64,000 nt of DNA from Candidatus Marinacidobacterales bacterium (GTDB taxonomy: Bacteria; Acidobacteriota; Vicinamibacteria; Marinacidobacterales; SMYC01), in NCBI GenBank assembly GCA_965224085.1, contig CBDCYI010000005.1, positions 2,016,001 through 2,080,000 on the forward strand, in the 5' to 3' direction. Below the pieces are notes generated by a model, which was not told the DNA's origin, made no database searches, and saw only the letters and a list, made by a program, of their open reading frames with translations. The position numbers and the translations under genes were made by a program. Of this stretch, positions 38,553 through 58,494 are shown piece by piece (position 1 is the first letter of the stretch; every line of letters begins with the position of its first letter).

Positions 38553-38566
38553 CGTTGGAGGATATT

Positions 38567-40210
38567 ATGGGAAAGCGATGCAAGGTCGCCACCCCTTTCA
38601 TAGTCGGAGTTCTTTTAGGAACCGTCCCCATGTGGAGTGGCGGAGCATTCGCGGAATCTTCCGGGTTTGTGGCCATCAATGTCGAAGAGATACGACTCGC
38701 CAACGGTTTTCGAGTCCTTCTCGTCGAGGATCATCGAGTTCCTCGCGTCGCCGCAAGCCTGTGGTACCGCTTGGGCGCCATTCGCGAATTGAGTGGTGAG
38801 CACGGCTCGACGCACTTCCTCGAGCACGCGGTGCATCAAGGGACCACCACCGTAGGCACCCGCAACTTCGAGGCGGAGAAACCAATCCTAAGGGAAATCC
38901 ACGAGACCGAGCAGAAGCTCGTGGAAGTCTGGAATCGAGAGCGCAACCGTCTTCGGGAACGGAATGTCTTCTATGACGAGCTTGACTGGCCGACGACACC
39001 CGAGATGGACAGCCTGCGGCAACGGCTCTACGAGCTCGAAGACCAGGACTCTCAATACCGCGAGTTCTGGGCCGAGTACAACTGGTATCGGCGCTACGGC
39101 GCCATCGCCCACGCCGATCCGGTGCCCGCGACGACGTGGAAAGAATATCTGGAAATCGATATCGACCTGCCGAAGGAGGCGATCGAGCTTTTGTTCCGCC
39201 TGGAGGCCGACCGGATGGTCAATGCGGTTCTACGAGGATGGGAGGCCCAGCGCTTTACCGTGCTGGAGCAGATTCTCAACCGACACGTGCTGCCAGAGAC
39301 GGGGCGCTTCTCAGAAGCGATCGATGGCGTCACCGGCCTGGCACACCCGGCGTACAACTCGGCCCAAGGGCATTTCCGGGATTTCGCCTACTACAATCGC
39401 ACCAGCATGCTGCGCGTCTACGACGACTACTTCGTGCCGAGCAATGCGACTCTCGCCTTGGTCGGAGACATCGCGCCCGGTGAGGCTCGCACTCTCGCCG
39501 AACGATATTTCGGCCAGCTCGCCCGAGGAGCGGAGTCACCGGCTCTCATGGATGTCGAAGCGGAACCGGTCCCGGGAGGCGCGGTGCGGCTCGACTGGCT
39601 AGAGCCCATGGACCCTCGGGTGATCCTTCGTTATCGCGTACCCGGGGTTGGTCACCCGGAAAGGCCGGTGTTCGACACCATCGCAGCCCTTACCCGTGGC
39701 CGTCACGGCCTCTTTGCGGCAAGTCTCGCGCGCAAGCCGGGCTCTCCTACGAACGTGGATTTCCAGGCTGCCCCGACACGCCTGGGATCCACTAACGTCA
39801 TCGATTTCATCGCGAAAGCGCGCCGCGACGAAGACGTTCCCGGCCTCGAAGAGACCCTGCTCGCGGTGCTGGACGACCTGCAAAAAAAACGCATCGACGC
39901 GAAGGCCCTGGAGCGAGCGCGGAAAGCCTTGCGCTTGGAGTGGGACCGGACTCGATCGGAGCGGAGAGAGCTCGCCAAAGCGCTCGGCCAATTTCAGGTG
40001 ATGGATAGCTGGGAAACGCTTCAGACCTTTATGGAAGCTCGGCTGAGCGCATCGGTCGAAGACATTCAACGAGCGGCGCGGCGATATTTTGTGCCTTCGA
40101 ACCGCGTCATCGTCATCGCGCGAGAGAGACCGCTTTCGCACGAGCGACCCGGCTCGCGCGCGACGACCTCGATGGCCCCAATGGCCTCAATGGAAGGAAA
40201 CGAGCCATGA
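38567..40210 (+). CDS. M16-fold peptidase, HxxEH subunit (alpha 1), secreted
   Basis: LANGFRVL, GSTHFLEH, LEADRM, YFVPSNATLALVGD; signal peptide. Confidence 0.85.
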   Translation: MGKRCKVATPFIVGVLLGTVPMWSGGAFAESSGFVAINVEEIRLANGFRVLLVEDHRVPRVAASLWYRLGAIRELSGEHGSTHFLEHAVHQGTTTVGTRNFEAEKPILREIHETEQKLVEVWNRERNRLRERNVFYDELDWPTTPEMDSLRQRLYELEDQDSQYREFWAEYNWYRRYGAIAHADPVPATTWKEYLEIDIDLPKEAIELLFRLEADRMVNAVLRGWEAQRFTVLEQILNRHVLPETGRFSEAIDGVTGLAHPAYNSAQGHFRDFAYYNRTSMLRVYDDYFVPSNATLALVGDIAPGEARTLAERYFGQLARGAESPALMDVEAEPVPGGAVRLDWLEPMDPRVILRYRVPGVGHPERPVFDTIAALTRGRHGLFAASLARKPGSPTNVDFQAAPTRLGSTNVIDFIAKARRDEDVPGLEETLLAVLDDLQKKRIDAKALERARKALRLEWDRTRSERRELAKALGQFQVMDSWETLQTFMEARLSASVEDIQRAARRYFVPSNRVIVIARERPLSHERPGSRATTSMAPMASMEGNEP

Positions 40211-41706
40211 AAATGGAAAGAGAGAAAATTTACCGGGCTCTGGTGCCGATGGCGGCACTCACTCTGGCCACCGCTCTTTCGCTGGCGGGCTGTGCTGGCG
40301 GATCGAATGGCGAAGAGGAGATATTACCAGGGCGCTCTCGTCCTTTGTTGGAGCACGACTGGCCTCATCCTCGTGACTTTGAGTTTGCCCCCAGCACTTT
40401 CACACCGCCAGATGCTGCTGGAGCTTTGGTGAACACGACGACGGGCCTTCGCGCTTACATCATCCCTGATGCATCGGACCCGCTGGTGCGAGTTACCGCG
40501 GCGGTGCCGTTGGGCCGACTCTATGAGCAGTCGGGCGAAGCCGGAGCTTCGAGGCTCTTGACGGAGCTTTTGACTCGTCACGGCCCGGCTGATCCAAACC
40601 GGCCTCTTTCGCTGCGCCTGGAGTCCCTGGGAACGGCTCTCCAGATGGAGGAGGATCTCGACGTGACGCAGATCTCAGTAGAGGTGCTGGCCGAGGACTG
40701 GCAGGAAGGACTGGCCGTGCTGATCGATGTCCTCCGGCGCCCTGACTTCGAAAATAGCGTTCTCCGTCACTATCGTACCGGTCCCGGGTACTCGACCCCT
40801 ACTTCGCGTGCTTCGGGAAGTGGATTCCAGCCTAAAGTGGAGCTCGAGAGAATTCTCGCTGGCTACCCGCTCGCGCCGGCCGATCCAGGCCTATCGGTGA
40901 CGAGCCAAGCGCTACGCGCCCTGGCGGGGCGTACGCTGCGGCCAAACAGGGTCGTCCTCGGCGTTTCAGGCAACGTGCCGAGGGCCGAGGTGGAGGCAGC
41001 GTTGAACAAGTTAAGCGAAGGCTGGGACACCACAGAAGAGCCGCTCCGAGTCGCCGAGCTGACCGGAGAAGCAAGAGTCCAAGAAAAGCTCCACACCATT
41101 GATGTGCCAAGCCTCGAGGGCTGGATTGCCACCGGCCGCCCGGTAGGGCCGGTTCCCGAATCGGAGCGGGCCGCTGTCGCGGTGATGGCTCACATCCTCG
41201 GGACGCGCCTCAACATTGCCGTCCGCGAGATCCGCGGGCTTGCCAATCACACCGTTTTCGTGCTCCCGGACACGGCGAGCGGAGCCGGTCTCTGGCATGT
41301 GAGAACGGGCGGTCGCACGGAGGCTGTGGCACCTCTCGTCAAGTTCTGCTGGGAAGAAATCGAGAAAATGCACCAACCTACCGAGCCCATCACCGAGGAC
41401 GAGATCGAACAGGCCAAGGGCGCGTTGGTGCTGAGTAGCTGGCAGGCAGCTCTCGACGGCGCCCGGCAGGCGAGCGCGACTTACGCGGTGGAAACTGTAC
41501 GGCGCGGGGCTTTGGACGCACTGCTTCAGTGGCCCGAAGCCGTTAGAGCGGTCACGGTCCAGCAGGTCAAGGAGGTTGCGCAAAAGTACCTGAGCGCGGA
41601 AGAGATGGTTACGGTTGTCGTCGGTCCAATCGATAAAATCCGAGAGGCACGTCACCCCCGATGGCCCGTCGATTTGAGCGCGCTTGAATCGACTCCCACG
41701 TCTTGA
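40207..41706 (+). CDS. M16-fold non-catalytic partner (beta 1), lipoprotein
   Basis: LSLAGC lipobox; no HxxEH; VREIRGLAN, TEDEIEQAKG, TVVVGP; ATGA coupling to alpha 1. Confidence 0.8.
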   Translation: MKMEREKIYRALVPMAALTLATALSLAGCAGGSNGEEEILPGRSRPLLEHDWPHPRDFEFAPSTFTPPDAAGALVNTTTGLRAYIIPDASDPLVRVTAAVPLGRLYEQSGEAGASRLLTELLTRHGPADPNRPLSLRLESLGTALQMEEDLDVTQISVEVLAEDWQEGLAVLIDVLRRPDFENSVLRHYRTGPGYSTPTSRASGSGFQPKVELERILAGYPLAPADPGLSVTSQALRALAGRTLRPNRVVLGVSGNVPRAEVEAALNKLSEGWDTTEEPLRVAELTGEARVQEKLHTIDVPSLEGWIATGRPVGPVPESERAAVAVMAHILGTRLNIAVREIRGLANHTVFVLPDTASGAGLWHVRTGGRTEAVAPLVKFCWEEIEKMHQPTEPITEDEIEQAKGALVLSSWQAALDGARQASATYAVETVRRGALDALLQWPEAVRAVTVQQVKEVAQKYLSAEEMVTVVVGPIDKIREARHPRWPVDLSALESTPTS

Positions 41707-41740
41707 CGAGCGCTCGAAGCTGAACCGCGGAGGCAACGCA

Positions 41741-43339
41741 ATGAGGAAAAGCACTACGGCATTGGCCCTTTGGGTGATCTTCCCTTTTTGTTTGACTGGA
41801 GGTGTCGAGCGGCTCGAGGCGGCCACAGATTCCATACAGGAGATCGTGCTCGAAAACGGGTTTCGAGTGCTGGTCGTCGAGAAAACCGCCGTGCCCCGGG
41901 TGGCTGCGAGTCTCTGGTATCGGGTAGGAGGGATAGCCGAAGCTCAAGGTGAGCACGGCTCCACCCACTTTCTCGAGCATTTGATCCATCAGGGAACAAC
42001 GACCGTGGGCACTAGAGACTTCGCGGCGGAAAAACCCATTTTGAGAGAGATCTATGAAACGGAACAGAAGCTGATTGAAGTTTGGAATCGGGAACGTAAT
42101 CGCCTGAGGGAGCGAAATGTCTTTTACGATGAGCTTGACTGGCCTACGACGCCGGAGATGGTGAAGTTGCGCCAGCGGCTCTACGAGCTGGAGGACCAAG
42201 ATTCGGAGCTTCGAGAGTTCTGGGCCGAGTACAACTGGTACCGACGTTACGGCGGCCGTGCTCGGCACGCCGATCCCGTGCCCGCGACGACGGGAAACGA
42301 GCATATGGACATCTCTCTCGACCTCCCTAAAGAAAACCTCGAGCTCCTCTTCCGGCTCGAGGCGGAGCGGATGGTCAATGCGGTTTTGCGCGGTTGGGAG
42401 GCTCAGCGATTCACCGTTTTCGAGCAGATCCTCAACAGCCACAGCCGGCCGGAGAGAGGGAGATTCTATCAGGCAATTAACGGAGTAACGGGGCTCGCCC
42501 ACCCGATATACCTGTCCGCGGGAGGGCATATGCGGGACTTCGCCTACTTCAATCGCGCCAGTATGCTCCGGATGTACGAGAAGTATTTCGTCCCCGGAAA
42601 TGCCACCCTCGTTCTGGTTGGTGACGTGTCGCTCGGGCAGGTTCGCTCCCTCGCCGAGCGCTACTTCGGTCGCATCCCCAAAGGAGCCGAGGCGCCGGCC
42701 CGGATGGACTACGAAGCGGAGCCGGTTCCCGGAGGCGCCGCGCGGCTCGACTGGTTGGAACCGCTGGATCCACGAATCATCATTCGGTTCCGCATTCCCG
42801 GCGTCGGGCACCCCGACCGGCCAGCGTTCGATGCCCTTGCGGCGGTGTTGCGAGGCCGTCACGGGGTGCTGGCTCGCGCCTCGAGGTTAAGGGAGGGTGG
42901 ATCGCGCGACCCATTTCGCGAGGTCGACTTTCAAGCATCGGCGCCGCGTTCTGGCTCGCCCCGCACCATCAGCCTCGTGGCCCGGGCGCGACGGGATGAC
43001 GATCTTCCCAAGCTCGAGCAAATGATGCTCGCGGCTTTAGAGGAGCTGCGCCAGGGAAAACTGGCTTCAGGGGATTTGAACCGGGCGCGAAAAGCGATGC
43101 GCCTGCAGTGGGAGCAGATCCGCTCGAGCCGTGGCAATCTGGCTTCGGAGCTCGGACGGTTCCAGGTGATGGACAGTTGGAGAACGCTCGAGCCCTATAT
43201 GGACGCGCGAGAGAAGGCTTCCATTGAAGACATCCGCCGCGTCGCCGAGCGCTATCTCGTTCCGGCCAACCGCACCATCGCCACGTCGCGTCGAAATCCC
43301 GCACCGAACGCTCTCCTGGCACGCACAAGCCCGGAGTAG
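41741..43339 (+). CDS. M16-fold HxxEH subunit (alpha 2)
   Basis: GSTHFLEHLIHQGT; paralog of alpha 1. Confidence 0.85.
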   Translation: MRKSTTALALWVIFPFCLTGGVERLEAATDSIQEIVLENGFRVLVVEKTAVPRVAASLWYRVGGIAEAQGEHGSTHFLEHLIHQGTTTVGTRDFAAEKPILREIYETEQKLIEVWNRERNRLRERNVFYDELDWPTTPEMVKLRQRLYELEDQDSELREFWAEYNWYRRYGGRARHADPVPATTGNEHMDISLDLPKENLELLFRLEAERMVNAVLRGWEAQRFTVFEQILNSHSRPERGRFYQAINGVTGLAHPIYLSAGGHMRDFAYFNRASMLRMYEKYFVPGNATLVLVGDVSLGQVRSLAERYFGRIPKGAEAPARMDYEAEPVPGGAARLDWLEPLDPRIIIRFRIPGVGHPDRPAFDALAAVLRGRHGVLARASRLREGGSRDPFREVDFQASAPRSGSPRTISLVARARRDDDLPKLEQMMLAALEELRQGKLASGDLNRARKAMRLQWEQIRSSRGNLASELGRFQVMDSWRTLEPYMDAREKASIEDIRRVAERYLVPANRTIATSRRNPAPNALLARTSPE

Positions 43340-43380
43340 AACGTACCGCGAGACGGTGTGAGGGGTGGAGGACGGAGATC

Positions 43381-44967
43381 ATGACGAAATCACTCTTTGT
43401 GGCGAAGCTGTTTGCCGTAGGAATGCTGGCGACAGGGCCACTGACGATGGCTTCAAGTGGGAGTCAGGTATCCCGGTCGGCCGCAAAAGCACTGCCCGCA
43501 GTCGAAGTTCAGGAGCTCGTCCTCGATAACGGCTTCCGGGTGCTGGTTGTCGAGGACGCGCGGGTACCCCGGGTGGCGGCAAGTCTCTTCTATCGCGTCG
43601 GAGCACTGCAGGAGAGGCAGGGCGAGCACGGCTCCACCCACTTTCTCGAGCATGCTATCCATCAGGGAACGACGAGCGTGGGCACTAGAAACTTCGAGGC
43701 GGAAATACCCATTTTGAGGGAGATCTATGAAACGGAACAGGAGCTGATCGCGCTCTGGAATCAAGATAGGAATCAGCTGCGGGAGCGGAACATCTTCTTC
43801 GATGAGCTCGACTGGCCGACCTCTCCTGAGATGGAGCGACTCAGGCAGCACCTTTACGAGCTCGAAGATCAAGACACGCAATACCGGGAGTTCTGGGCCG
43901 AGTACAACTGGTACCGGCGTTACGGCGGCCGTGCTCGGCACGCCGATCCCGTGCCCGCGACGACGGGAAACGAGCATATGGACATCTCTCTCGACCTCCC
44001 TAAAGAAAACCTCGAGCTCTTCTTCCGTTTGGAAGCAGACCGCATGGTCAACGCGGTCCTTCGTGGATGGGAAGCGCAACGGTTCACCGTGCTCGAACAG
44101 ATCCTCGGAAGGTGGAGCCGGCGGGACACGAGACTCGCCGAAGCTCTTCTAGGAGTGAGCGGCTATGCTCATCCTGTTTACACGCGGACGGCCTGGGGAC
44201 ATCTGCGCGACTTCGCTTATTTCAATCGCGCGAGCATGCTCCGCATCTACGATGACTACTTTGTGCCTAACAATGCGACCCTGGCACTGGTGGGAGACAT
44301 CTCGCTGCGAGAGGTGCGCTCCCTCGCCCAGCGCTACTTCGGCCGCATTCCCAGAGGGCCAAAGCCTCCGGCACGCATGGATCTGGAAGCGGAGCCACCG
44401 CCAGGAGGCGCCGTCCGGCTCGATTGGTTGGAGCCCTTGGAGCCGCGGGTGCTCATTCGCTACCGCATCCCGGCGGTCGGGCATCCTGATCGACCTGTGT
44501 TCGACACCATAGCTGCCTTACTGAAAGGCCCACAGGGCATGCTTGGCGCGAAGCTCCTGGGTGAACGCGGACTGGCTCCTGGCGTCGATTTGCAAGTCAC
44601 TGCAAGCCGTAGAGGAACGCCCGGGGCGATCGACCTCGTATCGGTGGCGGGGCGCGATGAAGACCTGGCTACGATTGAGAGCGCGATGCTCGAAGTCGTT
44701 GACGAATTGCGTCAAGGACGAGTCGACCCCAAAGCACTCGAACGAGCTCGTAAGGCACTGCGACTGGAATGGGAACGGATGAGGTCAGATCGGGACGAGC
44801 TGGCATATCAGCTAGCGGGCCATGCCGTCTTTGACAGCTGGGAAACGTTGCCGCTCCAGATGGAAGCCCGACTGGGGACGTCCTTGGAGGACATTCAGCG
44901 AGCAGCTAGACAATACCTCGTGTCGGTGAACCGGGTGATTGCCACCTCGCGTCGTAACCCGAGGTGA
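43381..44967 (+). CDS. M16-fold HxxEH subunit (alpha 3)
   Basis: GSTHFLEHAIHQGT; paralog of alpha 1. Confidence 0.85.
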   Translation: MTKSLFVAKLFAVGMLATGPLTMASSGSQVSRSAAKALPAVEVQELVLDNGFRVLVVEDARVPRVAASLFYRVGALQERQGEHGSTHFLEHAIHQGTTSVGTRNFEAEIPILREIYETEQELIALWNQDRNQLRERNIFFDELDWPTSPEMERLRQHLYELEDQDTQYREFWAEYNWYRRYGGRARHADPVPATTGNEHMDISLDLPKENLELFFRLEADRMVNAVLRGWEAQRFTVLEQILGRWSRRDTRLAEALLGVSGYAHPVYTRTAWGHLRDFAYFNRASMLRIYDDYFVPNNATLALVGDISLREVRSLAQRYFGRIPRGPKPPARMDLEAEPPPGGAVRLDWLEPLEPRVLIRYRIPAVGHPDRPVFDTIAALLKGPQGMLGAKLLGERGLAPGVDLQVTASRRGTPGAIDLVSVAGRDEDLATIESAMLEVVDELRQGRVDPKALERARKALRLEWERMRSDRDELAYQLAGHAVFDSWETLPLQMEARLGTSLEDIQRAARQYLVSVNRVIATSRRNPR

Positions 44968-45046
44968 CCTTACCGTTACCAACACCCACAACCAAGCTGG
45001 GTCAATCGCAGGCCCCCATTCTCCGGATCCCACCCGTGCCGGTAAG

Positions 45047-46756
45047 GTGAAGCGGACCGCCATACGATCCATCGCCTCTGTGCTGGCGCTGGTGATGGGA
45101 CCGCCGTACCCTTTGCTGTCATTCCAAGAAGGCCAAGAAGGCCAAGAAGGCCAAGAAGGAATGCTCTTTCGGGAAGTGACGGACGAGGTGAAGCTCGGCT
45201 TCCGGCATGAGCCCGGTGATGAGGCACGCTTCCTCCTGCCCGAGATCATGGGCTCGGGCGGCGCCTTTCTCGACTATGACGACGACGGGGATCTGGACAT
45301 CTACCTCATTCAAGGGGGTAAGCTAGACGGGCGAGGTATCGAGCCGCCGCGGAATCGTCTCTTTCGGCAGAACGCCGATGGCGGATTCACCGACGTCACC
45401 GCGCAGTCCGGGCTAGGAGACACTGGGTATGGAATAGGCATAGCCGTGGGCGACATCGACAATGACGGCCGCGTCGACGTCTTTGTCTCTAATTACGGAC
45501 GCGATGCGCTTTATCGCAATGACGGTGGAGGCAAGTTCACGAACATCGCGGCTGGCGCGGGTATCGCAGGGAAAGAGTTTTCGGCCTCGGCCGTCTTCTG
45601 TGACTACGATGGAGACGGATTCCTTGACCTCTATGTGACGCATTATGTCGACTATGACCCGGACAAAGGTTGCGTCAGAGAAGACGGAAGCCCCGACTAC
45701 TGTAGCCCGCAGAGTTTCCCCGGAACTAGCGATGCCCTGTATCACAACGAGGGTGACGGTACGTTCACCGACGTGTCCGGTAGGGCGGGCATTCAGCAGA
45801 TCGCTGCTCCCGGACTTGGCGTGGTGTGCACGGATCTCAACGGTGACCAGCTCCCCGATTTCTACGTGGCCAACGACGGCGAGGCCAATCAGCTTTGGGA
45901 GAATCAAGGCAAAGGCAAGTTCGTCGATCAAGCGTTCTTGCAGGGCCTCGCCTTGAATGTGTTCGGCCAGCCGGAAGCCGGTATGGGGATCACCATAGGC
46001 GATGTGGACGGCGATGGCGACTTCGATCTATTTCTTACGCACCTGACCAACCAGACCAACACACTCTACCTGAACACCGGCGCGCTGGGATTCGAGGATC
46101 GATCGGCGGCGGCGGGTCTAGCGTCCTCGAGTCTTCCTCGGACGGGGTTTGGAACCGGGTTTTTCGACTACGACCACGACGGCGATCTCGACATTGCGGT
46201 GGTGAATGGTCGGGTGCAGCGCCACCTGACGGTTTCCGGGGCTCGACTGGAACCCTACTGGAATCCTTACGCCGAGCCAAATCTTCTCCTCAGAAACGAC
46301 GGAGCGGGTCGTTTCAGCAACGTCAGCTCCCTGGCGGGGTCGTTTGGCTCCGAGATAGAGGTAAGCCGCGGCCTAGCACTTGGTGATGTGGACAACGATG
46401 GAGACCTCGATATCTTACTCACCAATACAGCGGGGCCCGCCCGACTCTTTCGCAACCAAGCACGGAAGCAAGGCAGTTGGCTGGCGGTACGGGCCATCGA
46501 TCTGAAGCTCAAGCGAGATGCCTACGGTGCGGTCATCATCGTGGTTGCGGACGGCAAGGAGTATGTGCGAGTGGTCCAGCCAGGCTTCAGCTATCTGTCG
46601 AGCAATGACCCGCGGGTCCATTTTGGCTTTCCCGGAGTGGAAAAAGCCGAGAGCATCCGCGTTCTCTGGCCGGACGGAAGCGAAGAGGTCTTTCCCGGCG
46701 TTGATTTGGGTCAAAGCGTCGTCTTGGAAAAGGGTCGGGGAGGCCGAAAACGTTAA
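45047..46756 (+). CDS. CRTAC1/ASPIC-UnbV family FG-GAP repeat protein 2 (start uncertain)
   Basis: PEIMGSGGAFLDYDDDGDLD, further FG-GAP repeats, SYLSSNDPRVHFG, VLWPDG. Confidence 0.85.
   Translation: MKRTAIRSIASVLALVMGPPYPLLSFQEGQEGQEGQEGMLFREVTDEVKLGFRHEPGDEARFLLPEIMGSGGAFLDYDDDGDLDIYLIQGGKLDGRGIEPPRNRLFRQNADGGFTDVTAQSGLGDTGYGIGIAVGDIDNDGRVDVFVSNYGRDALYRNDGGGKFTNIAAGAGIAGKEFSASAVFCDYDGDGFLDLYVTHYVDYDPDKGCVREDGSPDYCSPQSFPGTSDALYHNEGDGTFTDVSGRAGIQQIAAPGLGVVCTDLNGDQLPDFYVANDGEANQLWENQGKGKFVDQAFLQGLALNVFGQPEAGMGITIGDVDGDGDFDLFLTHLTNQTNTLYLNTGALGFEDRSAAAGLASSSLPRTGFGTGFFDYDHDGDLDIAVVNGRVQRHLTVSGARLEPYWNPYAEPNLLLRNDGAGRFSNVSSLAGSFGSEIEVSRGLALGDVDNDGDLDILLTNTAGPARLFRNQARKQGSWLAVRAIDLKLKRDAYGAVIIVVADGKEYVRVVQPGFSYLSSNDPRVHFGFPGVEKAESIRVLWPDGSEEVFPGVDLGQSVVLEKGRGGRKR
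45124..45159 (+). repeat. Coding tandem repeat (ccaagaagg)x4 = (QEG)4
   Basis: Four perfect 9-bp units. Confidence 0.9.
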
Positions 46757-47046
46757 GCAAGAAGAGAAAAATTCTCAGATTTCGCGAAGTGAAGGATAAA
46801 TCCAAGGCTTCGTATTTTTGCAATCCAAGAAAATGGAATTCGCATCAGCCCATGGAACCGAGATTACATCTTCTTTTGTTTCACATGGTTAAACCCGACA
46901 TCTGGATGTGGCTTGGTGTAGATCCGTCAACTAACTGGTTAGTGAAATTCAAATATATGGATAGATCCAATCTCTCGGTCTTCTTCTTTCGTCACTAACC
47001 GTTTGCCTTAGAACTACTTACAGCTAAGGACTGCCTGCCCGTATTG

Positions 47047-47062
47047 TGGTACACATTTCGCA
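47047..47062 (+). promoter_or_regulatory. Possible sigma54-type promoter upstream of TBDR3
   Basis: TGGTACA-CATT-TCGCA (GG-N10-GC) in an AT-rich region. Confidence 0.4.
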
Positions 47063-49859: not shown

Positions 49860-49915
49860 TCTAGCTGGAGGACCGGAGGAGATAGAAAGAGTTCGGGTCT
49901 GGTCTGAACGGAAAC

Positions 49916-49969
49916 ATGGCCACCTCGCCATTGTGTCGCCGTGCGCGATGATGAGGCGGGGTGGCCATT
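49916..49969 (+). terminator. Long imperfect hairpin after TBDR3
   Basis: atggccacctcgcc...ggcggggtggccat. Confidence 0.45.
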
Positions 49970-49974
49970 GCACT

Positions 49975-50194
49975 CTAGTCCTCTGGAACAGAGGTTCGTG
50001 GCCTAAAGCTCGAGGTCATTTTGTGGGCTGGCAAGGCGTGACGACGAAGTCATATTGGGATATTTCGAGGAGAAACAACGCAGCCACCAGAGCATCATTC
50101 AAGCCGCGGTGATTCACGCGCTGACCAATGACACGATCGTAGCGGGCAAAAGGGCCCGAGATTTAGGTTACGAATCTCTGTTCCAGGGGACTAG
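49975..50194. mobile_element. MITE copy (220 bp) with about 55 bp internal insertion
   Basis: Near-identical to 38178-38342, with extra sequence after caacgcagcc. Confidence 0.8.
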
Positions 50195-50328
50195 CTCGTT
50201 GCTCGAGAGGATGATTGCCAACCGGGTTCTTGTTGGCATCGAGATTGCGATACACCAGGTCTACGATCATCCAGAGTCTGCGTGACTCGAGGAGGACCGG
50301 GCCTCGCAAGACAAGAAAGGAGGCAGTC

Positions 50329-52068
50329 GTGCGTTACTTGAGATTTTTGACTTTGGCACTCATGGCGTTCGCCGTCGCCGGCAGCATCGCTCCGGAGACC
50401 AGGGCGCAAAAGAGTGCCCTCGCCAACCTACCTACGGATCCGAGGGATCCGCTGCTCAACCAGGGACCAAAGAAGGTGGCGGTGGGAGAGAGCGTGATGG
50501 TGAGCACGCAGCTACCCATTGTGACGGAAGCTGCGCTCCAGGTGCTGCGCGAGGGAGGCAACGCCATCGACGCCTTCATCACGGCGGTGTTCCTGCAGAA
50601 TGTGGTCGACTACCACCAGGGCTCTCTCTTCGGCGCGATGGGAGGGCTTTACTATGAGGCAGCCACGGGGAAGTATCACGTCTTTGAGTCCTATTCCGAG
50701 CGGCCGCTCGCCGGACGCTGCGGCGAAGGCGACCCATCACAGGTGGCGATCGGAGGCAAAGTTCTCGGCCTCGAGGCGCTGGCCAAGCGCTTCGGCACCC
50801 GGGAGTGGCCGAGCTATGTCGAACCGGCGATTGCCGCGGCAGAGGAAGGCGTCCTGGTCACCTCGTTCATGTTCGCCAGCAATTACAACTCCTGGGAAAA
50901 CCGCGACTTGATCCAGAAAAACAAAGAGGCCAGCGAGTTCTACATGCCGGACGGGCATCTGGTCCCGGTGGGTCATCGCTGGAAGATGCCAAAGTTAGCG
51001 GAGACTCTGCGGAAGATTGCCTCCGAGGGAGCGGACTACCTTTACACCGGCGCCTGGGGACAGAAGTTCGTGCGTGAGACCAGGAAGAAGGGTTACTGCG
51101 TGAGCATGGAGGACATGGCGGGTTTCGAGGTGCGGTGGGGAGAGCCGGTGCGCACGACGTACCGGGGGTATGAGATTTTCAGCGAGCCGCCTCCGAAGAA
51201 GGGCGGTATCCAGATCGGCTACAACTTGAACATCCTGGAAAACTTCGATCTCAAGAGCCTGGGGCATTATAGCGAGTCAGCGGATACGCTGGAGATCATG
51301 ACACGCGCCTTCGGCCGGGTCGAGGACGATCTTCGCTACGCGATCGCCGACCCCCTGAGCTTTCAGATCCCGTCCCAGATCTGGCTTTCGAAGGACTACG
51401 CCAAGATCGGAGCCGACTTTGTGCGCAGCACCATGGTGCTGCCGAACGTGGACCTGACGCCGCCCGAGAAGTCGACAACGGCAAGCAACGAGGCCGGAGG
51501 CACTCGTCTCGCCCGCGTGCTGGAGGGGCTGCCGACAGTCGACGAGAGTAACCACAATGTGATCGTGGACGCGGAAGGAAACTGGATCTCCTCGTTGCAT
51601 ACCGGGCACGGAGGAGCTCCGGGAACTTTCATCGATGGTATTCGAGCCAGGGGTAGCGGATTCCCCGGGCAGACAGTGGGGCCGGGGCGTCGCGTCAGTC
51701 CCAACAGCACCGGTACGATCGTGGCCAAAGACGGCAAACCTTGGCTGTCGCTGGGCTCTCCGGGTGTGCCGCCCCAGCCGGTGACGGAGGTGCTGGTCAA
51801 TATCATCGATTTCGGCATGCATCCCACAGAAGCGGCCGATGAAACCCGCTTCTTCGCGTTCCGCACCGCCGAGCGTGTCCTCGCGATCGAATCGAGGATT
51901 TCCGAGGAGGTACGCAAAGGGATGGCGGCGCGCGGCATCCAGCTCGAACACCTGGGTCCCTACAACTGGCATACCGGGTCGATGCAAATCATCTGGCGTG
52001 ACCCAACCACCGGGAAGCTACACGGGGTTACCGATCCGCGACGGCTCGGCCACGCAGCAGGGTTCTAA
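50329..52068 (+). CDS. GGT-fold Ntn hydrolase 4 (divergent, secreted)
   Basis: RBS AAGGAGG plus GTG; ESNHNVIVDAEGN, GSPGVPPQP, TDPRR; most similar to GGT3. Confidence 0.85.
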   Translation: MRYLRFLTLALMAFAVAGSIAPETRAQKSALANLPTDPRDPLLNQGPKKVAVGESVMVSTQLPIVTEAALQVLREGGNAIDAFITAVFLQNVVDYHQGSLFGAMGGLYYEAATGKYHVFESYSERPLAGRCGEGDPSQVAIGGKVLGLEALAKRFGTREWPSYVEPAIAAAEEGVLVTSFMFASNYNSWENRDLIQKNKEASEFYMPDGHLVPVGHRWKMPKLAETLRKIASEGADYLYTGAWGQKFVRETRKKGYCVSMEDMAGFEVRWGEPVRTTYRGYEIFSEPPPKKGGIQIGYNLNILENFDLKSLGHYSESADTLEIMTRAFGRVEDDLRYAIADPLSFQIPSQIWLSKDYAKIGADFVRSTMVLPNVDLTPPEKSTTASNEAGGTRLARVLEGLPTVDESNHNVIVDAEGNWISSLHTGHGGAPGTFIDGIRARGSGFPGQTVGPGRRVSPNSTGTIVAKDGKPWLSLGSPGVPPQPVTEVLVNIIDFGMHPTEAADETRFFAFRTAERVLAIESRISEEVRKGMAARGIQLEHLGPYNWHTGSMQIIWRDPTTGKLHGVTDPRRLGHAAGF

Positions 52069-52076
52069 GTAAGCTG

Positions 52077-52120
52077 GAAGCCGGGGTAGGGGTCCGCCAG
52101 GTATCCCTTCTCCGGGCTTC
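52077..52120 (+). other. Intergenic stem-loop
   Basis: gaagccggggtagggg...cccttctccgggcttc. Confidence 0.35.
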
Positions 52121-52151
52121 TCTGTAAACTCGGAAGAAGAGGAGTAGCGAG

Positions 52152-53762
52152 ATGGCCAGGAAGTGGATGACGGTAGTTTTTTTCCAGATCGGACTGCTGC
52201 TGGGAACCCATGCGGCGCCATCGGGCTCCCTCGCCTCCCAATTCCCGGCGGTGGAGATTCAAGAGCTCGTGCTCGACAACGGATTTCGGGTGTTAGTCGT
52301 GGAGGATCACCGGGTTCCCCGCGTGGCCGCGAGTCTCTGGTATCGCGTGGGGTCGATCGCGGAGGCCCAAGGCGAGCACGGCGCTGCGCACTTCCTCGAG
52401 CACATGGTGTTCCAGGGGACGACTTCGGTGGGGACCAAGGACTTTGCAGCGGAAGTGCCGATCCTGCGCGAGATTTACGAGACCGAGCAGAGGCTACTGA
52501 AAATCTGGAATGGGGAGAGGAATCGCCTGCGAGAGCGTGACGTCTTCTACGACGAGCTCGAGTGGCCGACCACGAGCAGAATGGACGAGGTGCGCCAGCG
52601 GCTTTACGAGCTTGAGGACGAGGATTCCGAGTACCGTGATTTCTGGGCAGAGTACAACTGGTATCTGCGCCACGGCGCCCTCATGCGGCATACCGATCCC
52701 GTCCCGGCGACCACCTTCAAGGAGCACATAGAGATTGATATTGACCTTCCCAAGGAAAACCTCGAGCTGTTCTTTCGGCTCGAGGCGGACCGGATGGTCA
52801 ACGCGGTCTTTCGAGGCTGGGAGGCTCAGCGGTTTACGGTGCTAGAGCAAAGGCTGAACCGACAGGGCCGTGCAGCGACTCGGTTCGATTACGAGGCGCT
52901 GGACGGAGTCACGTTCCTGGCTCACCCCGTGGCCCACCCCGCCGGTGGGAATTTACGGGATTTCGCGTACTTCAATCGCGCCGACATGTCCCGCATGTAC
53001 GACGCTTACTTCGTGCCCAACAACGCGAGAGTCGTTCTCGTGGGAGACGTCACGCTTACTGAGGTACGACCCCTGGCGGAGCGTTTCTTCGGTCGCCTGA
53101 AGAAAGGTGCCGAGCCCCCCGCCCGTATGGACTACGAGGCGGAGCCGGTTCCTGGAGGCGCCATTCGACTCGACTGGATGGAGCCTCTGGACCCTCGAGT
53201 CTTCGTACGTTACCGAATGCCGGGTGTGGGTCATCCGGACCGCCCGGTATTCGACACGATCGCCGCGCTCCTGACAGGGCCGCATGGCATGATCGGCGCC
53301 GATTTCACCGCTGGGGGCGGCGGTCGCACCTCGACCCAACCCGTTGACTTCGGGGTTTCTGCGCCGCGCGTTGGGGTGCCGTACGTGCTCAGCATCGTCG
53401 GCTCGGCGCGAAGCGATGACGATCTCCCCGACACCGACAGAGCAATCCTTTGAGCGGTCGAGAACTTGCGACAAGGACGAATCGATGCGAGCGCACTCGA
53501 ACGAGCGCGCAAATACATGCGTCTGGAATGGGACCAACTGCGTGCTGATCGTGGTGGCCTGGCGAGTGCGCTGGGAAGTTTCGACGTGATGGATAGCTGG
53601 AAGATTCTCCAATCGCACATGGAGGTGCGCGAAACTTCCTCGGCGGAGGACGTCCAGCGGATCGCACAGCGATATCTCGTTCCCTTCAACCGGGTGATCG
53701 CCACATCGCGTCAGAAACCGCTCGCCCCGGAAAGCCGTTCTCCTCACGGCCCGGTTCTCTAA
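52152..53762 (+). pseudogene. M16-fold HxxEH subunit (alpha 4) with in-frame TGA at 53451-53453
   Basis: GAAHFLEHMVFQGT; ORFs 52152..53453 and 53466..53762 are in the same frame and read AIL*AVENLRQG versus paralog AILEVVQELRQG. Confidence 0.8.
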
Positions 53763-53777
53763 CTGAGGCTCCGCGAC

Positions 53778-55277
53778 ATGAAAAACCGAGTCAAACAACA
53801 AAGGTGGCGCCGATGGCTGGCGCCGTTCAACGCGGTACTTGCGGTCGTCACCGCTTGGGGTTCGGTGGCTTGTAATCAGGCCACCGAAGGCAGAGAGGAA
53901 ACATTGCCAGGCCGCACTCGTGCGTTGCTCGCTCATGACTGGCCGCATCCCCGCGATTACCAGTTCGCGCCGAGCCAGTTCGAGCCACCGAATCCTGCCG
54001 AGGCCTTGGTGACGACCGACAGTGGGGTTCGCGCCTACGTTATCGCTGAGAGCTCGGAACCCGTTGTGCGAATCACCGCGGCTCTTCCGCTGGGACGGCT
54101 GCATGAGCGGGCGAACGAGGCTGGAGCTTCGGAGCTCATAACTCGAACCCTGACCCGAATCGGCCCAGAAGATCCGGAGCGTCCGTTGTCTCTGAGGCTC
54201 GATCGCCTGGCCACTCGGTTCGACGTCGAGGAGGCGCTGGACTTGACCCGTATCTCGCTCGAGGTGCTGGCCGAGGACTGGCGCGAGGCGCTCTCTCTGA
54301 TGATCGATGTCCTTCGGCGCACCGAGTTCAACGATAGCTCCATTCGCAGCTACCGTACCGGCCCTGGGTACGGTTTCTCCCGTCGTGCCGCGGACCCAGG
54401 GTTCCGGCCGAAGGTCGAGCTCGAGCGGATCCTTGGAGGATATCCTCTCGCACCGCCAGAGCCTGGACTCTCGGTCACGACCAACGGGGTTCAGGCGCTT
54501 GTCTCGCGGAGCTTGCGAGCGAACCTTGTGGTTCTCGGTGTCGGGGGAAACGTGCCGCGCTCCGAGGCTCTGGCCGCCCTCGATGATCTGACGAGGGGCT
54601 GGGAACGCGCCACAGGATCACCGGAAGCAGCGTCGCTCCCTCGCTTGGGCAACGAGCCAGAATCGGTACACACCGTTGACGCGCCGAGCCTCGAAGGATG
54701 GATAGCGATCGGTCGGGCGATTGATGGGATTCCGGAAACGGAGCGCGCCGCGGTCTCGGTGCTCGCCCACATTCTCGGCGTCCGCTTGAACATCGCGGCT
54801 CGCGAGATCCGAGGCCTCGCGAACAAAACGATCTTTTTGTTGCCGGAGACCGGAAGCGGAGCCGGGCTTCTGCACGTCCGCACGGGCGGCCGTTTGGAAG
54901 CGGTAGCTCCCCTCGTGAAGTACACCCTCGACGAGATCGACCGAATCCAAGAGCCGGATGACTCCATCACGAATGAAGAGCTGGAACGCGCAAAAGGCGC
55001 GCTCGTCCTGGGCAAGTGGCAGGGGGCACTGGACGGTGCTCGTACGGCGAGTGAGACTTATGCGGTCGAGACGGTACGCTACGGCACAACGGACCGCGTG
55101 CTCGAGTGGCCGGAGGCGGTAGAGGCCGTGACGGTGGAGGAGATCCGGGCGTTGTCCACCAAGTATTTAGCACGCGACCAGATGGTGACGGTCATCGTAG
55201 GGCCAATCGAAAAAATCCGGGCCGCACGCCATCCCCGCTGGCCCGTTGATCTTGAAACTCTGGTGAGCTCCAACTAA
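53778..55277 (+). CDS. M16-fold partner (beta 2), probable lipoprotein
   Basis: GSVAC; HDWPHPRDY; AREIRGLANKT; RHPRWPVDL. Confidence 0.8.
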   Translation: MKNRVKQQRWRRWLAPFNAVLAVVTAWGSVACNQATEGREETLPGRTRALLAHDWPHPRDYQFAPSQFEPPNPAEALVTTDSGVRAYVIAESSEPVVRITAALPLGRLHERANEAGASELITRTLTRIGPEDPERPLSLRLDRLATRFDVEEALDLTRISLEVLAEDWREALSLMIDVLRRTEFNDSSIRSYRTGPGYGFSRRAADPGFRPKVELERILGGYPLAPPEPGLSVTTNGVQALVSRSLRANLVVLGVGGNVPRSEALAALDDLTRGWERATGSPEAASLPRLGNEPESVHTVDAPSLEGWIAIGRAIDGIPETERAAVSVLAHILGVRLNIAAREIRGLANKTIFLLPETGSGAGLLHVRTGGRLEAVAPLVKYTLDEIDRIQEPDDSITNEELERAKGALVLGKWQGALDGARTASETYAVETVRYGTTDRVLEWPEAVEAVTVEEIRALSTKYLARDQMVTVIVGPIEKIRAARHPRWPVDLETLVSSN

Positions 55278-55328
55278 CCCTCGGTCGCGAAAAGATGGGC
55301 GAGGTCTCAACGAGAGGCCGGACTTTTC

Positions 55329-56864
55329 TCACCGCTCGGCGTCGGTAGGCTGGAGGGCGTCGAGATCTACCGGCCACCGCGGATGGCGGGCCGCCCGAAT
55401 CTTCTCCAGGGGGCCGACGACCACCGTGACCATCGCCGCTGGATCCAAATATCTTTGTGCCGTCGCTTTCACTTGGTCGGCGTTCACCGCCTGCACCGAC
55501 GCCGGCCAATCGAGCAATCGCTCGACTCCGCCACGTCGGACGGTCTCGACGGCATAGGTCGTGCTGGCCTGACGGGCACCGTCCAACGCTTTCTGCCAAG
55601 CGCCCAGAATGAGAATCCCCTTGGCTCGCTCGATCTCCTCGTCGGTGATGGTATCGGTCGGAGAATGAATCCGCCTCACTTCCTCGAGACAGAATTTGAC
55701 GAGCGGCGCCACCGATTCCTGCCGGCCGCCCGTCCGGATATGGAGCAGCCCGGCCCCGCTTCCGGTCTCCGGCAAAACAAAGATCGTATGATTCGCCAGC
55801 CCGCGCATCTCTCGTACGGCAATGTTCAGCCGCGTGCCGAGGATCTCTTTGAGCACCGCCAGTGGCGCCTGTTCGGACTCTGGGACGGGTTCGATCGCAC
55901 GACCGATAGCGATCCAGCCTTGCCTTGGAACGACCCATGCGCCCAGGCTCGGCTCGTCGAGCGTCTGGAGCCAACGAGAGGGTGGTGGAGGTTGGCGAAA
56001 CGAGCGCGTCTCCACGACACCCGCTGCACTCTCCCAGCCATCGGTGAGGTCGTTGAGGGCGGCGTGGAGATCGGCACTTGGCACACTACCGCCGACGCCG
56101 AACACGACACGGTTGGATCTCAGAGTACGCGCCGCCAGTGCCCGGACGGCTTCGGGCCTCACCGGAATCCCTGGATCCGGCGGCGCGAGAGGATAACCTC
56201 CCATCATGCGCTCGAGCTCGACCTTGGGTCGGAAATCGACCTCCTCGACGCGGGAGTTCGGGGTCGAATAGCCAAGCCCGGTGCGATGCCCGCGGAGAAG
56301 AACCTCATCCAGGGGTCCTCGCAACAGATCCACCACTAAGCCAAGGCCTTTGAGCCAATCGTCCGGAAGCACTTCCAAGGAGACCTGCGTGAAGTCCAGC
56401 GCCTCTTCCACCTCCAGCTCCGTTCCGAGCTCGTCCAAACGATCCGGAAGAGACCCCTGGGAGGTTCGGGCCCTGCGCCCGGCCACAATTCCAGTCAGCA
56501 CGCGCGCCGCGCCGGCTTCGCCATCTCGCTCGTAGAGCCGGCCCAGCGGCAGCGCTGCCGTGATACGTACCACGGGATCCGTGGTATCCGGGATCACATA
56601 GGCACGAACGCCGCTCGCGCTCGTGACCAGGGCTTCCTCCGCATCGGGCGGTTCGAACGTGGTCGGGGTGAACGTGTAGTCGCGTGGGTGCGGCCAGTCA
56701 TGTTCGACCAGCGGCCGGGAGCGGCCGGGCAACGTGTCCCCCTCACGGTCGAGAGCACCGCCACAGCTCATCGTTGCCCAAGCCGCCATCGCCACGGCCA
56801 GTCCGGCTCTCGTGGCGCCTTTCGGTGGAACGAGCCTCGTTGCCAGAACGGTCGCGATTGTCAT
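55329..56864 (-). CDS. M16-fold partner (beta 3), probable lipoprotein
   Basis: ATMSC; HDWPHPRDY; VREMRGLANHT; RHPRWPVDL. Confidence 0.8.
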   Translation of the reverse strand: MTIATVLATRLVPPKGATRAGLAVAMAAWATMSCGGALDREGDTLPGRSRPLVEHDWPHPRDYTFTPTTFEPPDAEEALVTSASGVRAYVIPDTTDPVVRITAALPLGRLYERDGEAGAARVLTGIVAGRRARTSQGSLPDRLDELGTELEVEEALDFTQVSLEVLPDDWLKGLGLVVDLLRGPLDEVLLRGHRTGLGYSTPNSRVEEVDFRPKVELERMMGGYPLAPPDPGIPVRPEAVRALAARTLRSNRVVFGVGGSVPSADLHAALNDLTDGWESAAGVVETRSFRQPPPPSRWLQTLDEPSLGAWVVPRQGWIAIGRAIEPVPESEQAPLAVLKEILGTRLNIAVREMRGLANHTIFVLPETGSGAGLLHIRTGGRQESVAPLVKFCLEEVRRIHSPTDTITDEEIERAKGILILGAWQKALDGARQASTTYAVETVRRGGVERLLDWPASVQAVNADQVKATAQRYLDPAAMVTVVVGPLEKIRAARHPRWPVDLDALQPTDAER

Positions 56865-56868
56865 CGCT

Positions 56869-58494
56869 CTACCGCCCCTCTGTCGGAAGCCCGCTCGAGG
56901 GTTCAACGCTCTCATCACTTCCGGGATTTCGATGCGCCGTCACGATGACGCGGTTGGAGCGGACCAGGTATCGCCTCGCTGCGCGTTCGATATCCTTCAC
57001 CGAAACTCGCTCCCGCGCTTCAACGTGAGATTGCATCGTGTTCCAGCTGTGCATCACCTCGAACCGTCCCAATTCATAGGCGAGGTCAGCGCGACTCGAG
57101 CGGATCTGATTCCAGTCGAGCCGTAGCTCCCTGCGCGCCTGCTCGAGCGTCTTCGGGTCGACTTGACCCTGACGCAACTCTTGCACCACCTCCAATATGG
57201 CGCTCTCGATTGCCCCGAGGTCCTCGTCCCCGCGCCCCATGCCGACGAGGTCGATCGCGCTCGGCGAGCCGGTGCGCGACGCGGATACCCGAAAATCGAC
57301 GCCGGTTGCAAGCTCTCGTTTGTCGCTGAGCTTCCGGTTCAGCATGCGTCCGACCAGCGCTGCGATCGTGTCGAAAACCGGCCGATCGGGATGGCCGACG
57401 CCGGGGATGCGGTAGCGAACGATGACCCTCGGATCCACGGGCTCCAGCCAGTCGAGCCGGATGGCACCCCCAGGAACCACTTCCGCCTCGAGATCCATCC
57501 AGGCGGGTGGCTCCGCTCCCCTCGGGATCCGGCCGAAATATTGCTCGGCGAGAGGTTCGACCTCGCTCCGGGTAATGTCCCCCACGAGGACGAGGCTCGC
57601 GTTGTTGGGTACGAAGTAATCATCGTACATGCGCAGCATGCTGGCCCGACTGTAGAACGCGAAATCCCTCAAATGGCCGCCGGAGCGCCGGAACATCGGA
57701 TGTACGACTCCGGTAACTCCGTTCATCACCTCATAGAACCTTCCCCTCGGATCGGCGGCCCGTTGGCGTCCTCCCAGGATCTGCTCGAGCACGGTAAACC
57801 GCTGGGCCTCCCATCCCCTCAGGACCGCGTTGGCCATGCGATCCGCCTCCAGCCGAAACAGAAGCTCGATGTTCTCCCTGGGCATGTCGAGGTCGATCTC
57901 GAGCGCCTCGTGCCCGGTCGTGGCCGGCACCGGATCGGTATGTCTGCTGACAGCCCCGTACCGACGATGCCAGTTGTATTCGGCCCAGAATTCCCTGTAT
58001 TGCGCATCCTCGTCCTCCAGCTCGTACAATCGCTGCCGCAACTGCTCGATTTCGGGGGTCGTCGGCCAGTCGAGGTCGCCGTGAAAGACGTCGCGCTGCC
58101 GGAGGCGGTTTCTCTCACGGTTACGGGCGGCCAGGAGCTTCTGCTCGGTCTCGTAGATCTCGCGCAAGAGGGATTTCTCAGCCTCGAAGTTGTTCGTGCC
58201 AACGGTCGTGGTCCCCTGGTGCACCATGTGCTCGAGGAAGTGGGTCGAGCCATGCTCGCCAATACGCTCCTGCAACGAGCCCAGGCGGTACCACAGACTC
58301 GCTGCGACGCGAGGGACCCGGTGATCCTCCACGACTAACACCCGGAATCCGTTGTCGAGCACGAGCTCTTGAACGTCGACCAGGGGAAAAGACGAAGACG
58401 GCTCGACGGAGGACTGGCTGTCGCTCGATCGCACGGAGGCTAGCCCTATGAGGAGCGTGGTGGCGACGGCACTCGTCAGGAGGAAGGGTCGCAT
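56869..58494 (-). CDS. M16-fold HxxEH subunit (alpha 5)
   Basis: GSTHFLEHMVHQGT; signal peptide. Confidence 0.85.
   Translation of the reverse strand: MRPFLLTSAVATTLLIGLASVRSSDSQSSVEPSSSFPLVDVQELVLDNGFRVLVVEDHRVPRVAASLWYRLGSLQERIGEHGSTHFLEHMVHQGTTTVGTNNFEAEKSLLREIYETEQKLLAARNRERNRLRQRDVFHGDLDWPTTPEIEQLRQRLYELEDEDAQYREFWAEYNWHRRYGAVSRHTDPVPATTGHEALEIDLDMPRENIELLFRLEADRMANAVLRGWEAQRFTVLEQILGGRQRAADPRGRFYEVMNGVTGVVHPMFRRSGGHLRDFAFYSRASMLRMYDDYFVPNNASLVLVGDITRSEVEPLAEQYFGRIPRGAEPPAWMDLEAEVVPGGAIRLDWLEPVDPRVIVRYRIPGVGHPDRPVFDTIAALVGRMLNRKLSDKRELATGVDFRVSASRTGSPSAIDLVGMGRGDEDLGAIESAILEVVQELRQGQVDPKTLEQARRELRLDWNQIRSSRADLAYELGRFEVMHSWNTMQSHVEARERVSVKDIERAARRYLVRSNRVIVTAHRNPGSDESVEPSSGLPTEGR

Follow-up and report, generated by a model that had tools for sequence, protein, structure and literature searches.

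Enzymes of the M16 family, among them insulin-degrading enzyme, mitochondrial processing peptidase (MPP), PreP and pitrilysin, are defined by an HxxEH motif together with a distal Glu. The bacterial M16B enzymes Sph2681/Sph2682 of Sphingomonas sp. A1 (3amj, 3ami) and PA0371/PA0372 of Pseudomonas (4nnz) are encoded by two genes, one for the HxxEH subunit and one for an inactive partner, and this organization is also found in the 64,000-nt stretch of a Candidatus Marinacidobacterales genome analyzed here (contig CBDCYI010000005.1, positions 2,016,001 to 2,080,000; hereafter the window). We call its HFLEH-bearing subunits alpha and their partners beta, which is the opposite of the MPP nomenclature. 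The window holds three alpha-then-beta pairs and two extra alpha genes, each chain being ~500 residues long. Compared with Sph2681, whose zinc site consists of 51-HALEH-55 and E131 in the available text of a 2025 review (PMC12731061), the window alphas have Gln in place of the zinc-binding Glu131 and of Glu124, and Pro in place of the NAxT Asn; compared with the Sph2682 type, the window betas have Asn in place of the partner Tyr. Here we describe a clade in which this Gln is fixed, and we propose that its members may still be metal-dependent peptidases.

The R/Y pair, a premise of an earlier reading of the window made from its letters alone (the sequence-only reading), completes the M16 active site according to the same review text, which also names MPP and the bc1 core proteins as lacking it (PMC12731061). 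MPP, an M16B heterodimer, is active without the pair and is like the window pairs in its Tyr loss, so the loss of the Tyr is no sign of inactivity. It does, however, keep HxxEH-x76-E and a glycine-rich partner loop, whereas the window sequences lack that Glu and have no identified loop of this kind. A second comparison comes from FusA/FusC of Pectobacterium and YddB/PqqL of E. coli, in which, as in the window, a TonB-dependent receptor gene lies beside an M16 protease gene. The available texts describe a periplasmic M16 protease that processes an imported protein (PMC6793856, PMC6071955), and FusC-type proteases as single chains of ~920 residues with a canonical H-H-E site (FusC H80, H84 and E165; PMC6071955). 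These systems were described in Proteobacteria; the window protease is two-chain rather than single-chain FusC/PqqL-like, with one chain predicted to be lipid-anchored and Gln at the ligand position, and the window receptors are of the carboxypeptidase-regulatory-domain type and are likened to the Fus systems by gene adjacency. Judged by this analogy, the protease-associated import system of Proteobacteria is the nearest described functional system.

The sequence-only reading had reported HFLEH, QRFTV(L/F)EQ and DPVPATT in five alphas and RE(I/M)RGLAN in three betas, and alignments of both sets bear this out. Among the alphas, which are 61–65% identical to alpha1, the columns HFLEH (87–91), D188-P-V-P-A-T-T194 and Q232-R-F-T-V-x-E238-Q239 (alpha1 numbering) are invariant; among the betas (57–60% identity), R340-E-x-R-G-L-A-N347 is invariant except at x. 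The count of five alpha subunits stands for the motifs, but alpha4 is cut by a TGA codon, leaving four full-length. That the last Glu of ERxVVxEE is the third zinc ligand, as the sequence-only reading had it, agrees with E131 of Sph2681 (PMC12731061), and the alignment to 3amj_C places alpha1 Q232, E238 and Q239 opposite Sph2681 E124, E130 and E131. Two MAFFT alignments of 126 rows each show no gap in the ligand helix; Arg228 does not vary, and conservation reaches at least 90% at Val237 and Glu239 (alpha3 numbering). We set aside the register of the HMMER alignment to 4nnz_A, which is shifted by a two-residue gap before the helix, since the 3amj and MAFFT alignments agree on a gap-free one; likewise, an apparent Gln at position 8 of P0199 and P0264 in hmmalign is Glu in MAFFT. 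Gln232, at the position of the Glu that lies seven residues before the ligand Glu, is the less telling change, because Gln at this first helix position also occurs in M16 proteins that retain the ligand Glu (P0244, P0245 and a 922-residue paralogue in the same genome). The latter, a single chain at G000:C5:519011-521776 (-), reads HLFEH and NQRDVVKNERR, Gln occupying the first helix position and Glu the ligand position, which Asn precedes. The beta profile in turn matches the inactive subunit 3amj_B (3.2e-14), with N347 opposite the Tyr of RGLSY, so that in 3/3 betas the Arg of the pair is kept and the Tyr is Asn.

These substitutions extend well beyond the window. A word-indexed search listed at least 120 homologues of the alphas (55–96% identity) and at least 120 of the betas (51–97%), and counts out of 120 below refer to these. 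HFLEH and Q....EQ are each present in 120/120 alpha homologues, so that where M16 enzymes have HxxEH-x~76-E, Gln stands in 5/5 window alphas and in every homologue listed. DPVPA[STN]T is found in 119/120, the remaining sequence having APVPAST. Among the beta homologues, R[EA]xRGL[ASTC]N occurs in 120/120; Arg (R340) is retained, and the partner Tyr is kept in 0/120, with Asn instead. The beta stretch that matches HxxEH is ASRLLTELL, which contains no His, and by this loss the betas fit the non-catalytic M16 class; the alphas, with HFLEH kept in 5/5, do not. Both alpha Gln codons alternate synonymously between CAG and CAA among 11 gene copies from the window and related loci. Synonymous variation in the codons of an invariant ligand-position Gln indicates a site that is selected rather than decayed. 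The motifs are thus not due to chance, and conservation of this kind marks the site as non-canonical and under purifying selection. His83, four residues before HFLEH (alpha1/alpha3 numbering; for example, window 38801-38803), is also invariant in 120/120 alpha homologues, whereas 78% of canonical relatives have Thr there and a sister group of fused proteins described below has Val, Ala, Ile or Thr. His83 may be an additional ligand or belong to the second shell.

An exhaustive search against 1.84 billion representatives returned 14,665 relatives at E <=0.001. The majority of the best 150 of these 14,665, which were inspected, are ~500-residue proteins with a long helical insert between HxxEH and NAxT that are otherwise canonical (LNAxT, REFYxERDVVxEERR); a minority have Gln at the ligand position, namely P0126 and P0130 (EERMILVEQ, LTATT) and ~1,100-residue fused proteins (EKEVVI[DE]Q, TAST). 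An M16B phylogeny, which the sequence-only reading had suggested as a check, was computed as a quick IQ-TREE (LG+G4) run on 71 of 126 rows with the motif columns kept in. These comprised all 18 rows with Gln at the ligand position, 45 of 83 canonical long-insert rows (a random draw of 38, to which were added 7 of 12 named rows not already in the set) and 8 of 25 short-insert rows. Eleven alpha-family rows and six other Gln rows fall on one side of a branch with an approximate likelihood ratio (SH-aLRT) support of 100, and within this split the fused proteins on the one hand and P0126 with the alpha family on the other form two groups, each again at 100. The seventh Gln row from outside the family, P0269, has lost HxxEH and is placed elsewhere. 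Because the tree groups the Gln rows in this way, the Glu-to-Gln exchange arose once and defines a wider clade, of which the window family is, by the same tree, the most derived branch. The suspicion of a changed metal site voiced in the sequence-only reading therefore holds insofar as the site is non-canonical and its purifying selection fits such a change, but the trait belongs to a one-origin clade wider than the window.

The canonical long-insert M16B proteins (~500 residues; P0150, P0235, G000:C9:451235-452812) lie on the opposite side of this split. They share the architecture of the alphas, helical insert included, at 24–33% full-length identity, but keep LNAxT, REFYxERDVVxEERR, both Glu residues and Tyr231, and their insert is mostly 77–84 residues long against 94–97 in the window family. 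The spacer from HxxEH to NAxT is accordingly ~97 residues in the window alphas and ~24 in the short-insert M16 set. On the branch leading to the clade, the NAxT Asn changes to Thr or Pro, Tyr231 changes to Asp or Glu, and the partner Tyr is lost; the window family adds Glu233 to Gln, Thr192 to Pro with a two-residue insertion, Thr83 to His and Lys95 to Gln (alpha3 numbering). Such joint replacement of the ligand, the NAxT Asn, residue 231 and the partner Tyr suggests that the site was remodeled in a concerted manner. The fused sister group was sampled as 120 relatives of P0135, whose source names include Balneolaceae, Cyclonatronaceae, a Gemmatimonadota soil bin, Vicinamibacterales and Acidobacteria. 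In alpha3 numbering, these have His at position 87 in 119/120, Glu at 90, His at 91, Thr at 192 and Glu at 233 in 120/120 each, Glu or Asp at 231 in 120/120, and Gln at the ligand position, 240, in 120/120. Their C-terminal halves read R-T-x-T-G-I-T-[SA]-A-L in place of the canonical R-x-x-x-G-L-A-Y, and the Tyr is found in 0/118. A different fusion, P0121 (1035 aa, from a metagenome), carries RGLAN and QRFTVLEQ in the order beta-then-alpha, the reverse both of the gene order and of the fused sister group.

Structure prediction places the proteins within the M16 fold. PF05193 of Pfam matches all eight window proteins, and PF00675 matches beta1 and the five alphas, the latter only at profile positions 1-54/57 because of the insert. 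The alpha profile finds the active bacterial M16B subunits 4nnz_A (1e-41) and 3amj_C (3.9e-35) among chains of the Protein Data Bank, matching them in two stretches with profile positions 97-202 skipped. An AlphaFold2 model of alpha3, built on a 126-row alignment, has a mean predicted local distance difference test (pLDDT) score of 91.7 and a predicted template modeling score (pTM) of 0.89, and contains insert helices at 105-128, 130-133, 149-165 and 173-180 and the ligand helix at 230-245. Its first Foldseek matches are the active M16B subunits 3ami_A (E 1.5e-28, TM 0.86), 4nnz_A (TM 0.90) and 5euf_A, with TM computed on the target; the best-matching chains have ~400–420 residues, the model 528. 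Alpha1 (40-540) and beta1 (38-499), modeled together with Zn, are predicted to pair, with a median ipSAE of 0.92 over three runs, whereas the best of three controls reached 0.00; the score may stem from likeness to solved M16B heterodimers. The ipSAE mark is reached by 116/157 solved complexes and 2/215 mismatched pairs. At least 95% of contacts agree among the runs, and the partner pLDDT is 90. In the predicted interface, alpha 230-239 and 187-189 meet beta 340-348, and the R...N loop lies against the active-site helix as in closed M16 enzymes. Fold, the adjacent genes for an HxxEH-bearing and an inactive subunit predicted to form a clamshell, and HxxEH itself thus assign the alphas and betas to M16B by lineage; lacking the distal Glu and the R/Y Tyr, they are a divergent clade rather than ordinary members.

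The betas also carry a conserved N-terminal strap of ~45 residues after the lipobox; similarity to 3amj_B starts only beyond it, with beta profile position 79 opposite residue 8 of that chain. The strap segment 40-65 (LPGRSRPLLEHDWPHPRD...; window ~40324-40401 in beta1, and present in beta2 and beta3) is nearly invariant and, in the complex model, lies along alpha 206-228 and the alpha insert. We considered the HDWPHPRD portion of this strap as a source of metal ligands and rejected it: His54 is not conserved, and in the model the strap touches the insert and alpha 206-228 but stays clear of alpha 87-91. Sec-type signal peptides can be read at the alpha N-termini, Cys29 of beta is invariant in 62 aligned sequences, and a lipobox-like motif occurs in 95/120 beta homologues as opposed to 8/120 alpha homologues. 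These signals indicate that the alphas are probably exported and the betas lipoproteins.

From the motifs, the homology of the ligand position, its conservation, the clade structure, fold, gene order and export signals, we infer metal binding, catalysis, location and substrate as follows. The complex is proposed to be still a metal-dependent periplasmic oligopeptidase with a remodeled metal site, a proposal to which we give about even odds (roughly 0.5). His87 and His91 would hold the metal and Glu90 would activate water, as in other M16 enzymes. The amide oxygen of Gln239 would serve as third ligand, a role that the neighboring Glu238 might take instead in this family; judged across the aligned sequences, Gln239 is the only third-ligand candidate common to the whole clade, with Glu238 an alternative for the window family. 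The R340...N347 loop of beta would close over the site on closure of the clamshell. Peptides arriving via the adjacent TonB-dependent receptors would then be degraded in the periplasm alongside the gamma-glutamyltranspeptidase (GGT), DUF885 and M24 hydrolases encoded nearby. The argument that the site is still working rests on the conserved His/His/general-base Glu set, the invariant Gln and the concerted rebuild.

Several points weigh against this proposal. Gln is rarely a zinc ligand, and exchange of the third-ligand Glu for Gln in pitrilysin and insulin-degrading enzyme reportedly abolishes zinc binding and activity; a literature search for such mutants (E189Q, E169Q) found nothing relevant. 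The partner lacks the transition-state Tyr, although active MPP does so too. The four co-changes fall on one branch and count as one event, not as repeated covariation. The family is rare, being found in 3/401 sampled Acidobacteriota genomes at E <=1e-100 (that of the window included), and one of the window modules is decaying, with a broken receptor and the alpha4 nonsense codon.

The strongest competing explanation, which we nevertheless consider rather unlikely, is a catalytically dead clamshell whose role would be to bind, not to cleave, peptides or unfolded proteins, as in lipoprotein-anchored capture or hand-over to TonB-dependent receptors. Loss of activity would fit the exchange of all three residues, namely the third ligand of canonical enzymes, the Glu upstream of it and the Tyr of the partner; a lipoprotein beta and pairs that adjoin receptors would suit capture, and inactive M16 halves that serve in binding are well known (MPP alpha, core proteins). 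Yet the M16 subunits known to be inactive have lost HxxEH, as the window betas have, whereas HFLEH, with its general-base Glu, is present in every alpha homologue listed and near-invariant in the 120 fused relatives. Relaxed selection, moreover, would not leave an invariant Gln.

Adjacent to the Gln lies a Glu, and the enzyme could be an ordinary zinc peptidase if a slight displacement of the helix brought this Glu238 into the ligand position. Within the window family Glu238 does not vary (120/120 homologues listed), and its position is at least 90% conserved throughout the long-insert group; however, it is already Glu in canonical relatives, so its conservation need not mean a new role. In the fused relatives the residue before the Gln (position 239, alpha3 numbering) is Asp in 73, Asn in 37, Glu in 6 and Gln in 4 of 120, while the Gln that follows does not vary; those with Asn-Gln at the two positions, of the RQFEAEREVVVNQ type, have no neighboring carboxylate. 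With Asn or Gln in 41/120, a universal carboxylate before the Gln is ruled out for the clade, and takeover by an adjacent Glu cannot be its general solution. It is thus the Gln itself that these comparisons mark as the constrained residue, a neighboring carboxylate being no general requirement. A shift of ligand to Glu238 would also leave the invariant Gln and the co-changes at NAxT, residue 231 and the partner Tyr unexplained, and we consider it improbable.

A different chemistry would involve another metal or a non-standard bond, for instance in gamma-glutamyl or acidic substrates that match the GGT neighbors. Two carboxylates have been removed from the site while a new acidic residue (E/D231) and a new His83 have become fixed, and the order receptor-GGT-alpha-beta occurs three times in the window genome: at window 63483-55329, at 47246-55277 (the decaying copy) and at G000:C5 ~693-702 kb (locus L011). 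The linkage to GGT is seen in the window genome only, however, and was not found by profiles in loci L001, L002, L003 and L009. Net charge and Arg/Lys content of the alpha/beta family relative to canonical relatives follow base composition and are uninformative on substrate. We hold a change of chemistry, hinted at only by the GGT linkage of this one genome, to be quite improbable. That the encoded Gln is converted to Glu after translation, restoring the canonical site, has a precedent in an unrelated system as its one support (available text of PMC9304363) and is hardly credible, as the locus shows no hint of a deamidase and a Glu codon, one base away, is never used in the 240 sequences listed.

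Returning to the proposed peptidase, the association of alpha with beta is the constant feature of its genomic setting. The alpha-then-beta order is found in all six distinct related loci, and in other genomes only this pair is constant. The window genome (G000) has seven alpha-like genes at >=61% identity and five full-length betas, both alpha copies outside the window sitting in alpha-then-beta pairs. All three window modules, and likewise L002, L011 and L012, have a TonB receptor gene no more than ~10 kb away; none was found by profiles or Pfam in L001, L003 and L009. Neighbors elsewhere are a receptor and M24 (L002), an S9 peptidase (L001), HtrA-like proteases (L003) and PD40 and amidohydrolase proteins (L009). 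The tight family (at least 55% identity) is known from Acidobacteriota and Gemmatimonadota, and three named loci from metagenome-assembled genomes, found by a pattern scan of genome contigs, are from Acidobacteriota. The window genome also has canonical M16 genes with E...EE and RGLAY, among them one with the long insert (MNAFT, ERDVVHEERR) and one of 423 residues (RGLAYSVYS).

Features of the window on which this description rests, with their coordinates.
Feature	Coordinates	Strand	Evidence and remarks
TonB-dependent receptor with N-terminal carboxypeptidase-regulatory-like domain	35093-37945	+	Pfam CarboxypepD_reg, Plug, OMP_b-brl_4, TonB_dep_Rec_b-barrel; directly upstream of alpha1
alpha1, HFLEH subunit, 551 aa open reading frame (ORF)	38555-40210	+	Pfam PF00675 (profile positions 1-54 only), PF05193
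alpha1 motif HFLEH	38813-38827	+	
alpha1 motif DPVPATT	39116-39136	+	
alpha1 motif QRFTVLEQ	39248-39271	+	
beta1, partner subunit without HxxEH	40207-41706	+	lipobox LAGC; REIRGLAN 41224-41247
alpha2, extra alpha without its own beta	41684-43339	+	QRFTVFEQ; probable start at internal ATG near 41741
alpha3, second extra alpha, structurally modeled	43381-44967	+	Pfam, alpha alignment
FG-GAP / ASPIC-UnbV (CRTAC1-like) protein, ends alpha1-beta1-alpha2-alpha3 row	44939-46756	+	Pfam FG-GAP_3, UnbV_ASPIC
Broken TonB-dependent receptor, two ORFs	47246-48277 and 48489-49859 (span 47246-49859)	+	Pfam; tblastn
GGT paralogue upstream of alpha4	50215-52068	+	Pfam G_glu_transpept 1.8e-69; NCBIfam TIGR00066 below cut-off
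alpha4, all motifs, cut by in-frame TGA	ORF 52152-53453, alpha-like frame to 53765	+	alpha alignment
beta2 (REIRGLAN)	53778-55277	+	Pfam, beta alignment
beta3 (REMRGLAN), downstream of alpha5	55329-56918	-	Pfam, beta alignment
alpha5	56869-58494	-	Pfam, alpha alignment
GGT paralogue upstream of alpha5	58590-60395	-	Pfam 1.1e-78
TonB-dependent receptor heading the receptor-GGT-alpha5-beta3 module	60550-63483	-	Pfam

The probable start of alpha1 is the ATG at 38567, codon 5 of its ORF, and the beta1 ATG overlaps the alpha1 stop (ATGA). The in-frame TGA of alpha4, at 53451-53453, yields a product of 433 aa, with the frame remaining alpha-like for ~105 codons further. Three runs, drawn from three studies, have contigs over 52960-53599 that depart from the window at 0, 0 and 1 positions and never at the TGA, and their agreement indicates that the stop lies in the DNA and is not an assembly slip; it looks like a recent nonsense mutation. 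In the broken receptor, ~100 barrel residues are gone and the frame changes, so that in tblastn with an intact paralogue residues 48-345 lie in one frame and 447-977 in another. The alpha of L011 is very similar to alpha4, and the receptor-GGT-alpha4-beta2 module gives the impression of a duplicate, now in decay, of the intact L011 module. Fragments lie elsewhere in the genome, an alpha with a TAA codon at G000:C4:645959-646619 and a beta with a TGA codon at G000:C4:1188737-1189309; these are further remains of an expanding, decaying family. Contigs from RNA run X18, in 12/30 bins, are only 90–95% alike and most likely derive from relatives, and provide no evidence of expression.

Upstream of these genes the window contains four DUF885 genes, three further GGT genes, another receptor, two M24 peptidases, a sortilin/BNR protein and a second FG-GAP/ASPIC protein. 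As a whole, it holds five GGT paralogues, four DUF885, two M24, two FG-GAP/ASPIC and five TonB-receptor genes, of which one is broken. Paralogous exported hydrolases are unusually crowded here (window 1-35000 and 50215-60395). A DDE transposase is encoded at 19875-21704.

We found no description of Gln at the M16 third-ligand position, nor of this type of locus, in open-access text, supplements excluded; the exceptions within M16 given in the available text of the 2025 review concern loss or alteration of HxxEH only (PMC12731061). The conserved Gln variant of the zinc site is thus apparently undescribed. Existing annotation is uninformative in this respect: the homologues, mostly from Gemmatimonadetes, bear only the source names 'predicted Zn-dependent peptidase', 'zinc protease' and 'insulinase/pitrilysin family protein', no NCBIfam model reaches its own cut-off for these proteins, and a search of the ESM Atlas gave only generic 'Zn-dependent peptidase' clusters. 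As a more far-reaching and clearly more tentative extension of the peptidase proposal, the clade could be a new catalytic subclass of inverzincins with a neutral His-His-Gln metal set, in which the substrate-side residues (the NAxT Asn, Tyr231 and the partner Tyr) have been re-tuned. It would comprise the window family and the ~1,100-residue fused proteins of Balneolaceae, Cyclonatronaceae, Gemmatimonadota and Acidobacteriota, and in the present organism its members would be periplasmic, lipid-anchored and partnered with TonB-receptor/GGT import modules.

Hundreds of environmental sequences, whose source names point to several bacterial phyla, belong to this clade; they keep HxxEH and have Gln fixed at the third-ligand position. 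If active, the clade would be a natural test of what the third ligand contributes to metal affinity and water activation, and it would also warn against assigning the labels 'inactive' or 'ordinary zinc protease' by motif only. The repeated receptor-GGT-alpha-beta modules, for their part, suggest an unstudied peptide-scavenging system in Acidobacteriota.

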